A DNA stretch of 60,894 bases from the sequence record NC_018846.1; one strand, 5' to 3'. Positions 30,001 through 33,000 of the stretch are shown one piece after another. This stretch comes from Escherichia phage P13374. The position numbers are program-made. Positions within the stretch are counted from its first letter, which is position 1. Each line of letters starts with the position of its first letter.

Positions 30001-33000
30001 TTCGGCAGGGCTGGTGGGGTGAGCATAAACCGAATGCTTTCCGCGTTTACCGTTATTCTGCTGGTGGTCTGTGGTGCGCTTAGTCTGGGGCTGAATCATT
30101 ACCGTGATAACGCCATCGCTTACAAAGAGCAGCGCGATAAAGCCACATCCATCATCGCAGATATGCAGAAGCGGCAACGTGATGTAGCAGAACTTGACGC
30201 CAGATACACAAAGGAGCTTGCTGATGCTAATGCGACTATCGAAAGTCTCCGTGCTGATGTTTCTGCTGGGCGTAAGCGCCTGCAAGTCGCCGCCACCTGT
30301 GCAAAGTCAACGACCGGAGCCAGCAGCATGGGCGATGGAGAAAGTCCAGGACTTACAGCAGATGCTGAACTCAATTATTACCGTCTCAGAAGTGGAATCG
30401 ACAAGATAACTGCGCAGGTTAACTACCTGCAGGAATACATCAGGACGCAATGCCTGAAATAATTTTTTTGCAAATCACAAAGTCAATTTAATGAGCCTCG
30501 CGATACGGGGCTTTTTTATGTCCGCAGTAAACGCGCTTCACACGCGCGACTTATGAACACAGAACCTTTCAGGATGACCCTTGAGGATGCCGGTTTGGTG
30601 ATCGGTGCCTTTCTGTGGGCCGGAATCCTGTGTGACAAGGTTCATCACTAAAAGGTGTGCACTGATGAATTATCCAACTATCGTTAACGGCATCGATTTT
30701 CGAGATCTTGTTTTTGTGACAGGCAACGAGCCGGTGACGGATACCCGAAAGGTTGCCGTAGCATTTGGCAAAGAACACAAAGATGTATTGCGGAAAACAA
30801 GAGCCGTTGTTCAACAATGCTCAAAAGAATTTGCAGAGCGCAATTTTGCGCTTTGCTATGAAAACAATGAGTTACAGAACGGTAAACCCCAGCCCATATA
30901 TCGAATGACAAAAGACGGTTGGACGATGTTGGTATTTGGTTTTACGGGGAAGGCTGCTATGACCTTTAAGGAAGCGTACATTCAGGCTTTCAACTGGATG
31001 GCTGAGCTTATTCAGCAAGGTCTGGCGAATCTGGAGGCGGAGCGCAACGCTGTAATGCTGGAGTACATGAAAGAGAAAGATGTCGCCAGTATGTCAGGTC
31101 GTTTGCTCAATCGCTGGGGCAGGGTGAAGAAGCCTCAGTTGCTGGCAAGGCTGGACAGGCTGGAGCAGCAGGGGCAGATTGCGTTACCCGGATTTGATAA
31201 AGGCATTTCAGCCTGACATAGCCATGCGCCGTATCGTCGCCGTATTCCCGCATTAACAGAGACTGCAGCCACCTTATCTGCGTGAGTGTGCGGGGATAAT
31301 CAAAAACGATGCACACCGGGTTTTCTCATTTTTCACGAGATGGGAGCGATTTCCCGCGAAGCCGCCTGTCCGGTGCGGTGGTGGAAGAAACCGGATAAAA
31401 CAACCGCATTGTGCAAATATCGATCAAATATGGTGCTGCTGTGTGAAATCTGAAAAATCACAGCGGTCATTATGCATCAGTTTTTAACACAGGACGTCAG
31501 AAAGTGACATGGCAAAGCTGGACTGGAAAAAGCTGGAGCAGGCATTCCGACGCGAACATGCCGAAACGGGAATAACATTACTGGACTGGTGCCGGAAGAA
31601 AAAGATTAATTACAACACCGCCAGAACCCGTATAAAAATGGGCAAAATCGATCATGAAATTGATCATAAAACCGATCATGAAATCGATCATGACATCTCA
31701 GATGAAGAACCCTGCAATGACGCGGGTTCCGGCGATGAAAAATGCGCAAAAAACTCTGAAAAAAACTGCGCAAATTCGGCAGAAACGAAACGGATTCGTG
31801 GTTCCCGACTTTTACCACCTTCAAACGCTTTTTCTCAGCGAAACACCCACGCCGTAAGACACCGTGGATATGCGAAGTATCTTGAGGCAGATAACCTCAT
31901 GGATGATGCGTCCGACATGGTGCTGTTCGATGAACTGGTGTTCACCCGGGCCCGCGCACTTTCAGTAACTAAGGCACTTAAAGGGATGTTCGCCGACCTG
32001 GAAGAGGCAACTGACGTGGAAACCCGCGTTGCTCTTTACGACAAAATACTCAAAGCTGAACAGGCCCTTGACCGGAATATTGCCCGTATCGAGTCAATTG
32101 AACGCTCATTGCTGACGCTGGACGTCCTGGCTGAGACAGCACCAAAACTTCGTGCTGACCGGGAAAGAATCAACGCCGCCAGAGATAAACTCAGAGCGGA
32201 AACCGATATTCTGACCAGCCAGCGTCGGGGCGTTGTTACGCCTGTCAGTGACATCGTGTCATCGCTGCATGAAATGAGTAATTCGGGGAGACTGGATGAC
32301 ATTCCGGAAGAATGAACCGCGATGTGATGAGCCGTCAGAAATGACCGAGGCTGAACAACGTCTGTTCATCATGACTAAACTGAGCAATCCCTGGTGGCGG
32401 CTCAATCATCTCTACAAAATACAGAACGAAAAAGGTGAACTGGTCACCTTCAGAATGCGACCGGCGCAGCGCCAGTTGTTCCGGAGCATGCACAATAAAA
32501 ATATTATCCTGAAAGCGCGCCAGCTGGGATTTTCCACAGCCATTGATATTTATCTTCTCGACCAGGCATTATTCATTCCGCATCTCAAATGCGGGATCGT
32601 CGCTCAGGATAAACAGGCTGCCAGTGAAATTTTCCGCACAAAAATTGCTGTACCGTTTGATCATCTCCCTGACTGGCTGAGAGCCTCATTCACCATCGTT
32701 GAACGTCGTAGCGGTGCCAGCGGTGGCTATATCCTGTTTGGTCACGGCTCGAGTATCCAGGTGGCAACCTCATTCCGTTCAGGTACGGTGCAGCGCCTGC
32801 ATATCTCAGAGCACGGCAAAATTTGCGCGAAATATCCGGCTAAGGCGAAAGAACTGCGAACCGGTACGCTTAATGCCGTCTCTGATGAATGCATTATTTT
32901 TGATGAGTCCACTGCTGAAGGCGTGGGTGGTGATTTTTACGAGATGAGTAACCGAGCACAGGAGATCACTGCATCAGGCTTATTGCTGACGGCACAGGAT

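Follow-up and report, generated by a model that had tools for sequence, protein, structure and literature searches.

A GATC hexamer array in the small terminase gene of Escherichia phage P13374 and its probable role in pac recognition

The terS locus and its array

The window analysed here is a single stretch of 60,894 nt from Escherichia phage P13374 (NC_018846.1), a Shiga toxin (Stx) phage with headful packaging. Its terS gene, coding for a small terminase subunit (TerS) of the 933W type, contains GATCAT four times, starting at positions 31650, 31662, 31674 and 31686, and the array of YGATCA hexamers so formed is probably the recognition element of the packaging (pac) site. The features are located in Table 1. 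terS lies directly upstream of terL with an overlap of 20 nt, and terL is followed by a P22-type portal gene. TerS is matched by PHROG 370 ('terminase small subunit') with E = 3.8e-125 over residues 1–268, so that both the family match and the overlap that mark a 933W-type small terminase are present. Together with the terS labels carried by identical sequences in GenBank, these confirm the first-pass annotation, made from the sequence alone, which had placed the repeats in a small terminase gene. In the 1.1 kb around the array the Stx2a phages of E. coli O104:H4 and their relatives (P13363, phiON-2011 and phi191) match the window with 100% identity, and 139 Stx phage records match it with an identity of ≥99%. 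The TerS of 933W is 99.6% identical to that of the window. Neither TerS nor TerL has a match in Pfam or NCBIfam, and a profile and sequence search of the PDB with TerS gave no relative.

The structure of TerS was modelled with AlphaFold2 on 21 homologues, giving a predicted template modelling score (pTM) of 0.36 that is lowered by a disordered linker. Starting at the N terminus, the chain is predicted to form a three-helix helix-turn-helix (HTH) domain, the third helix of which is the probable recognition helix. It then continues as the disordered linker, and ends in a C-terminal domain with a long coiled coil (residues 130–238). Foldseek matched the full model to nothing more than generic coiled coils. 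Homologues from E. coli to Aeromonas, when aligned, are conserved in the HTH and C-terminal domains and differ in the linker, in both its length and its sequence.

Table 1. Location of the terminase genes, the sequence motifs and related features in the window (pLDDT, predicted local distance difference test)
Feature	Position	Strand	Remarks
terS, small terminase subunit, 933W type, 268 aa	31509..32315	+	PHROG 370; overlaps terL; GenBank annotation in identical records
N-terminal three-helix HTH codons, residues 1–46	31509..31646	+	Helices 6–20, 24–31 and 35–41, pLDDT 74–86 (AlphaFold2); homologous to the P1 PacA N terminus
Predicted recognition helix, codons 35–41 (YNTARTR)	31611..31631	+	Third helix of the AlphaFold2 model
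Mosaic 'specificity cassette'	31545..31860	.	27–78% identity to E. coli TGCGCA-type terS, 88–100% on both sides
TGGGCA, one mismatch from TGCGCA	31639..31644	.	Gene nt 131, where sister lineages carry CTGCGCAAA; codon-by-codon comparison
Disordered TerS linker, residues 47–116, host of the arrays	31647..31856	+	pLDDT <50 at 47–109 and 111–116
YGATCA array, four copies (CGATCA 31649, TGATCA 31661, CGATCA 31673, CGATCA 31685)	31649..31690	.	Centre-to-centre spacing 12 bp; each unit then W-RAA; proposed TerS-binding element of pac
TGCGCA, two copies (31743–31748 and 31767–31772)	31743..31772	.	57 and 81 bp downstream of the last GATC
terL, large terminase, 933W type	32296..34002	+	PHROG 2, 24361 and 38407; presumed nuclease/motor partner
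Adenine methylase, MT-A70 family, 208 aa	2899–3525	-	PF05063, E = 5e-22

The array occupies nt 141–182 of terS, directly after the HTH codons. It reads ATC GAT CAT GAA, ATT GAT CAT AAA, ACC GAT CAT GAA, ATC GAT CAT GAC, and encodes the peptide I47-DHEIDHKTDHEIDHD-62, residues 47–62 of TerS. The four copies of YGATCAT span 31649–31691, and Tandem Repeats Finder reports 31645–31697 as a tandem repeat of period 12 with 4.4 copies and a score of 78. Four evenly spaced copies had been noted in the first pass with a spacing of 12–13 bp; their number stands and the spacing is exactly 12 bp, a perfect periodicity that results from the array being a tandem repeat. This is the sole place in the window with at least four GATC sites in 60 bp. 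GATC is under-represented across the window as a whole, with 176 sites against 242.6 ± 14.6 in dinucleotide-preserving shuffles. When the 176 sites are placed at random, at least four within 40 bp arise in 3.2% of trials.

The number of units differs between close relatives. Most have four, but others have one (P0020), two (P0016), three (LC645410 and others), five (L063 and P0025) or seven (P0001), which bears out the earlier suggestion that the repeat is prone to slippage. Such variation might be expected of a neutral coding repeat, in which a 12-bp unit has been expanded by slippage within a linker that tolerates changes in length, GATC arises only from the Asp-His codons GAT CAT, and pac is in another place. 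The model shows this region as disordered (pLDDT <50), the linker varies widely in length and sequence across the family, and a unit length divisible by three keeps changes in frame. The clustering statistic is weak, and many unrelated contigs of viral origin contain generic GATCA repeats with a 12-bp period. Copy number aside, however, no part of the gene varies less than the array. Across 23 distinct alleles of the window class, 1 of its 51 sites is variable (2%), compared with 28% in the rest of the linker and 8% in the C-terminal domain, and the single variable site is the pyrimidine preceding one GATC. Slippage is thus real and works on a constrained motif. A phase-variation switch was considered and rejected; the unit is 12 bp, and all variants with 1, 2, 3, 4, 5 and 7 copies are in frame.

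Some further observations concern the same gene. In L116 (LC727844.1), at 2665–4600, an IS3-family insertion element with two transposase open reading frames (ORFs) and an end that reads TGAACCGCCCCGGG... is inserted 8 nt past the last GATCAT of a three-copy array and truncates terS. The gene is truncated in this way in a group of 48–51 kb Stx2a prophages, with about seven similar cases among 60 records sampled. Two ORFs overlapping the array, at 31654–31857 (+) and 31606–31824 (-), would encode 67 and 72 aa and are entered as 'hypothetical protein' in some GenBank records. No support was found for either as a real gene, and they are probably artefacts of the repeat.

Repeated motifs in the linkers of homologous genes

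The TerS proteins of Salmonella prophages are 59–61% identical in amino acid sequence to that of the window. Their genes carry three to five YGATCA hexamers at nt 142–190 in the same 12-bp phase, with T and C mixed at the 5′ base. The units are AGT GAT CAA AAA, AGT GAT CAT AAA and AAC GAT CAT GAA, and the codons around the hexamer differ, encoding SDQK, SDHK and NDHE compared with IDHE, IDHK and TDHE in the window. To judge from these codons, the motif is kept as DNA rather than as peptide. The retention of the array in divergent lineages is a stronger argument against chance than the clustering of GATC in one genome.

These substitutions bear on the possibility that the function resides in the peptide, with the Asp-His repeats of DHEIDHKTDHEIDHD being metal-binding or charge-patterned and the DNA motif a by-product. 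Repeats rich in His and Asp can chelate divalent metals, and the repeat peptide is conserved among the Stx phage alleles. A role of this kind is nevertheless highly improbable. Several of the Salmonella units exchange His for Gln (DQK) yet keep GATCA, arrays in the family of phage P1 discussed below include out-of-frame GATCA copies read as M-I-I, V-I-T and L-I-I, and further lineages encode AQK, VRK, CAK or SQIR at this position. In addition the copy number is free to range from one to seven, and the segment is predicted to be disordered.

The comparison was extended to 72 distinct homologous loci taken from genomes and IMG/VR. In each terS homologue motifs were counted in a 200-nt linker segment (gene nt 111–310), with the flanking ~6.6 kb as control. 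A short-motif array is present in the linker of all 72 loci, and the usual motif is TGCGCA. The 51 loci with an ARR[YH][IL]K helix have three to seven copies of this palindrome each, with a density of 31.2 per kb in the linker and 0.29 per kb in the flanking sequence, a 108-fold difference; none of the control 200-nt windows in these loci equals the hexamer count of the linker. TGCGCA is found in all three frames, as ACT GCG CAA (TAQ), GTG CGC AAA (VRK) and TGC GCA AAA (CAK). The helix SAKR[YH]IT is found at five loci, of Pectobacterium and Brenneria, with five copies of TTCGCA each. The 16 loci with an ART[RQ]IK helix, the window included, have GATC arrays, at 21.9 per kb compared with 2.9 per kb elsewhere. 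Homologues with a different N-terminal domain have other motifs again: GTACGCA seven times in two frames in Klebsiella phage Chronis, and AACGCAC, or TCCGTC with its complement GGACGGA, in further loci.

The TGCGCA-type genes of the 933W family, from E. coli, Citrobacter, Serratia, Yersinia, Aeromonas and Morganella prophages, belong to the same PHROG 370 as the window gene and have their array at the same position in the linker. Each unit is likewise a hexamer followed by an A-rich run, and the pair of TGCGCA hexamers downstream is shared. In the E. coli members the C-terminal domain and terL are near-identical to those of the window. The TGCGCA type differs from the window in its hexamer, TGCGCA(A/G), which has no Dam site, in a less regular spacing of 9–34 bp, and in the recognition helix, ARR[YH] rather than ARTR. 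T40 and R41 characterize the GATC class, and R40 with Y or H at position 41 the TGCGCA class. The class of helix agrees with that of the repeat in 107 of 107 classifiable protein clusters and at 72 of 72 loci. A one-residue code in which R40T specifies GATC is ruled out, since P1-family proteins with ARR[YE] are accompanied by TGATCA, and L298, with NTARRY, by TGCGCA.

A motif that is independent of frame, adjoins the codons of a DNA-binding domain and changes with that domain is best explained as the binding site of the domain. These properties argue against the neutral coding repeat, which we regard as unlikely. Sister lineages carry other motifs at the same spot, in three frames and ~100-fold enriched, the motif class follows the HTH class, and the Salmonella homologues hold the phase and spacing of YGATCA while the surrounding codons change. 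Genes of the P1 PacA family carry the same arrays, with some copies in other frames. No description of linker arrays of TGCGCA, TTCGCA, GTACGCA or AACGCAC in terS was found in the literature searched, and HTH-matched hexamer arrays in small terminase genes are apparently a wider, undescribed pattern. A scan of IMG/VR for three copies of TGCGCA gave 75 stretches, of which about 20 belong to TerS genes that share the HTH; the others are unrelated AQ-type repeats. The HTH-plus-array module appears to be common to several small terminase families. Six IMG/VR contigs (L246, L257, L274, L298, L299 and L305) have TerS-like ORFs of 248–366 aa in which an HTH of the form ...NY.SARRYIK is followed by TGCGCA arrays.

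The motif type and the recognition-helix type change together within a cassette of ~300 bp. In a sliding-window comparison with two E. coli TGCGCA-type loci (L080 and L071) identity is high (88–100%) upstream of 31545 and again from ~31860 through terL. The divergent patch in between comprises helices 2 and 3 of the HTH and the arrays. Traces of an older motif remain within it. The TGGGCA preceding the GATC array is probably a decayed copy, and the two intact TGCGCA hexamers, out of 27 in the whole window, are remnants of a TGCGCA-type array; the corresponding pair is kept in E. coli TGCGCA-type genes at gene nt 292 and 304. The pair may serve as a second arm of the packaging site. The linker also has a second allelic patch at 31793–31841 (terS nt 285–333), where the window encodes IRGSRLLPPSNAFSQ and other Stx phage alleles NSRSGNPHPVARFSD, and both versions are present in TGCGCA-type genes too.

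The GATC array could also be a Dam/SeqA element that is separate from recognition by TerS. The hemimethylated array would then bind SeqA strongly and either sequester newly made DNA or modulate late transcription through terS. SeqA prefers closely spaced hemimethylated GATC sites, as in oriC and P1 oriR, and the spacing of 12 bp, which puts successive sites on roughly the same face of the helix, fits that of a SeqA cluster, for which two or more GATC on one face within about three helical turns suffice. Moreover, a cluster that is retained in a phage otherwise depleted of GATC stands out. At this position, however, most family members have motifs without GATC, so that what is conserved is a repeat matched to the HTH and not a site for Dam. 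Array and recognition helix also change as a unit, both lying within a single cassette. A separate element of this kind is therefore quite improbable, and binding of SeqA could operate alongside pac recognition, adding a level of control without taking its place.

Relation to the pac site of phage P1

The N-terminal domain of TerS is related to that of PacA of phage P1. A PacA profile made from P1 PacA and two homologues from 92-kb P1-like contigs (L140 and L189) was aligned with the N-termini of 933W-type TerS proteins by hhalign at 97.7% with E = 1.7e-12 over 46 columns, and the N terminus of P1 PacA (first 42 letters) can be aligned with that of TerS. The N terminus of L189, which is a full-length PacA homologue, matches the window TerS by BLASTP with E = 2e-7. 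The PHROG matches are reciprocal: the window TerS hits PHROG 1711, the PacA family, with E = 3e-5, and P1 PacA hits PHROG 370 with E = 1.9e-4. There is no similarity between TerS and PacA beyond about residue 46. BLASTP of TerL against P1 PacB gave E = 3.7, with no specific similarity beyond the generic TerL superfamily.

The P1 pac site comprises 161 bp inside pacA and contains seven TGATCA/G hexamers; the pacase binds hemimethylated pac and cuts only fully methylated pac, and synonymous recoding of the hexamers lowered titre and yield ~9-fold (PMC10028697). In the pacA sequence TGATCA/G hexamers lie at nt 195, 202, 214 and 229, and at nt 325, 337, 348 and 376, encoding ...IIDHSNDQHAGDH..., and the annotated cleavage points (nt 276–285) are between the two groups. 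The genes of L140 and L189 each have five TGATCA hexamers at exactly 12 bp, at nt 154–202 and 169–217 respectively, plus one more nearby. These arrays encode RDQAGDHNHDHLSDHASDH and RDQNSDQNSDQNSDHNGDQK, and some copies are in other frames. The two contigs were the only useful yield of an IMG/VR scan for four GATCA at 12 bp, which otherwise returned mostly unrelated coding tandem repeats.

The window array shares several properties with P1 pac. It lies inside the small terminase gene just 3′ of homologous HTH codons, and consists of repeated GATC hexamers that mostly supply Asp-His or Asp-Gln codons, with the exact 12-bp spacing of the P1-like relatives. Both phage types package by the headful mechanism and transduce (PMC3752737; PMC10028697). 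At the level of sequence, the array matches the proven P1 element in hexamer core, spacing and position relative to a homologous HTH, and it may be counted among the P1-type pac elements, as one from another family of phages. The systems also differ. Two TGCGCA hexamers are located where a second arm might be, the body of TerS is a coiled coil with no relation to PacA, and TerL has no specific relation to PacB. The likeness to P1 pac proposed in the first-pass annotation is upheld for the HTH homology, the position in the gene and the YGATCA arrays, which are present in PacA homologues and in Salmonella; the two hexamer clusters, a consensus site for integration host factor (IHF) between them, and the bodies of PacA and PacB are missing.

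The pac sites of P22 and Sf6 lie in gene 3 and gene 1 respectively, and those of SPP1 (pacL and pacR) have repeated boxes in or near gene 1. The P22 site is a single asymmetric sequence of ~22 bp and not a repeat array. To our knowledge none of the three is dependent on methylation. They resemble the window in having pac within or beside terS of a headful phage, and differ in TerS fold and in position within the gene; no sequence similarity of the window TerS to these systems was found by Pfam or PDB sequence search. More generally, the packaging signal of headful phages lies in or beside the small terminase gene and is read by DNA-binding domains on the TerS ring (PMC11260489, PMC4737164).

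Proposed role in packaging, and other features of the window

The ends of 933W DNA could not be sequenced across, and were interpreted as terminally redundant (PMC3752737). The phage carries out generalized transduction, with cotransduction limits that fit a headful of 61 kb (PMC3752737), and terminases of the 933W type are classed as headful (PMC6029569, PMC7317114). The available evidence therefore runs counter to the fixed cos-type ends considered in the first-pass annotation. No GenBank phage record of a relative was found to start inside the array, as would be expected after reorientation based on PhageTerm; by convention, those ending close to terS begin with terL.

A mechanism may be proposed on this basis. 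TerS would be an oligomer with a long C-terminal coiled coil, in which each subunit carries a small N-terminal HTH on a disordered linker of ~70 residues. Several HTH domains may bind successive hexamers, about one helical turn apart, within the DNA that encodes that linker. The bound array would mark the concatemer for TerL, which would cut nearby, plausibly in the ~50-bp gap between the GATC array and the downstream TGCGCA pair, and the cut would start a series of headful packaging events. Given that every hexamer includes a Dam site and that the HTH is a homologue of the one in P1 PacA, binding or cleavage probably depends on whether the array is methylated, as it does in P1. Control of the array by Dam is plausible by this analogy. 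Most members of the TerS family use the non-methylatable TGCGCA, so that methylation control does not extend to the whole family and would be confined, if present, to the GATC class. The phage encodes an adenine methylase of the MT-A70 family, which rules it out as a classical Dam enzyme, so that any methylation of the array would come from the host Dam.

A number of observations weigh against the array as the pac recognition element. In the literature searched no mapped pac site, virion ends, TerS binding or cleavage were found for 933W-type or Stx phages. The clustering of GATC taken on its own is only mildly unusual (p ~0.03), and the identity of the units within one genome is not independent evidence, because they arose by tandem duplication. 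There is a single cluster, the nearest other GATC sites being at 31422 (228 bp upstream) and 32595 (909 bp downstream), and so one group of four hexamers in place of the groups of 4 + 3 that flank the cut within ~160 bp in P1, which needs hexamers to either side of it. Three of the four hexamers have a 5′ C, reading CGATCA and not the TGATCA/G of P1, and only one is an exact TGATCA. The IHF consensus WATCAANNNNTTR was not found with up to one mismatch in 31509–32315, although a weak site could escape a consensus scan. In the relatives with only one or two units (P0020 and P0016) either few copies are enough or the prophages are defective. PacA of phage D6 (L245, AY753669) has the same type of HTH (GLSFNTARKHLN) and no regular hexamer array, its gene having a loose group of five GATC sites at nt 316–447; regular arrays are thus not universal in the PacA family. 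Finally, the relation of helix to motif is no simple code, as seen with the ARR[YE] and NTARRY proteins above. With these points taken into account, recognition of pac through the array is still the reading we favour.

A broader proposal is possible but more doubtful. The PacA-like HTH with its cognate hexamers in linker DNA may be a portable module common to 933W-type, P1-type and several other small terminase families, in which case the Stx lineage would have switched from TGCGCA to the Dam-methylatable GATCA and brought its packaging under host Dam. If so, reader and site are inherited together as a cassette of ~300 bp whose exchange can switch specificity, and TGCGCA, TTCGCA, GTACGCA and GATCA are variants of one module. 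The spread of stx and generalized transduction in enterohaemorrhagic E. coli (EHEC) would then also be under host Dam, as in P1.

Phages of the 933W type carry stx2 in EHEC O157:H7 and in the O104:H4 outbreak strain of 2011, and Dam has already been linked to 933W lysogeny. As a pac element, the array would give the packaging signal of these medically important phages a position that can be tested for the first time. A defined pac element would allow limits on the production of Stx phage and on transduction to be tested, together with gating of packaging by Dam. It would permit constructs that are packaging-competent or packaging-dead, as for P1 phagemids, and the prediction of pac from sequence alone across hundreds of Enterobacterales and Aeromonas prophages. 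The match of HTH class to hexamer class forms a natural data set for studying how DNA is read by small terminases.

Three other features of the window were noted. Next to cI, at ~14600–17020 on the minus strand, the annotation of phiON-2011, an identical phage, has a BsuBI/PstI-like restriction-modification pair. On a 500-bp scale GATC is densest at 19293–19733, with nine sites, within or beside a putative replicative helicase gene (19033–20553 in phiON-2011); this stretch may be an origin region sensitive to Dam and SeqA. Tandem repeats encoding collagen-like Gly-X-Y sequence, with periods of 45 and 63 bp, are found at 42229–42466, presumably in a tail-fibre gene.

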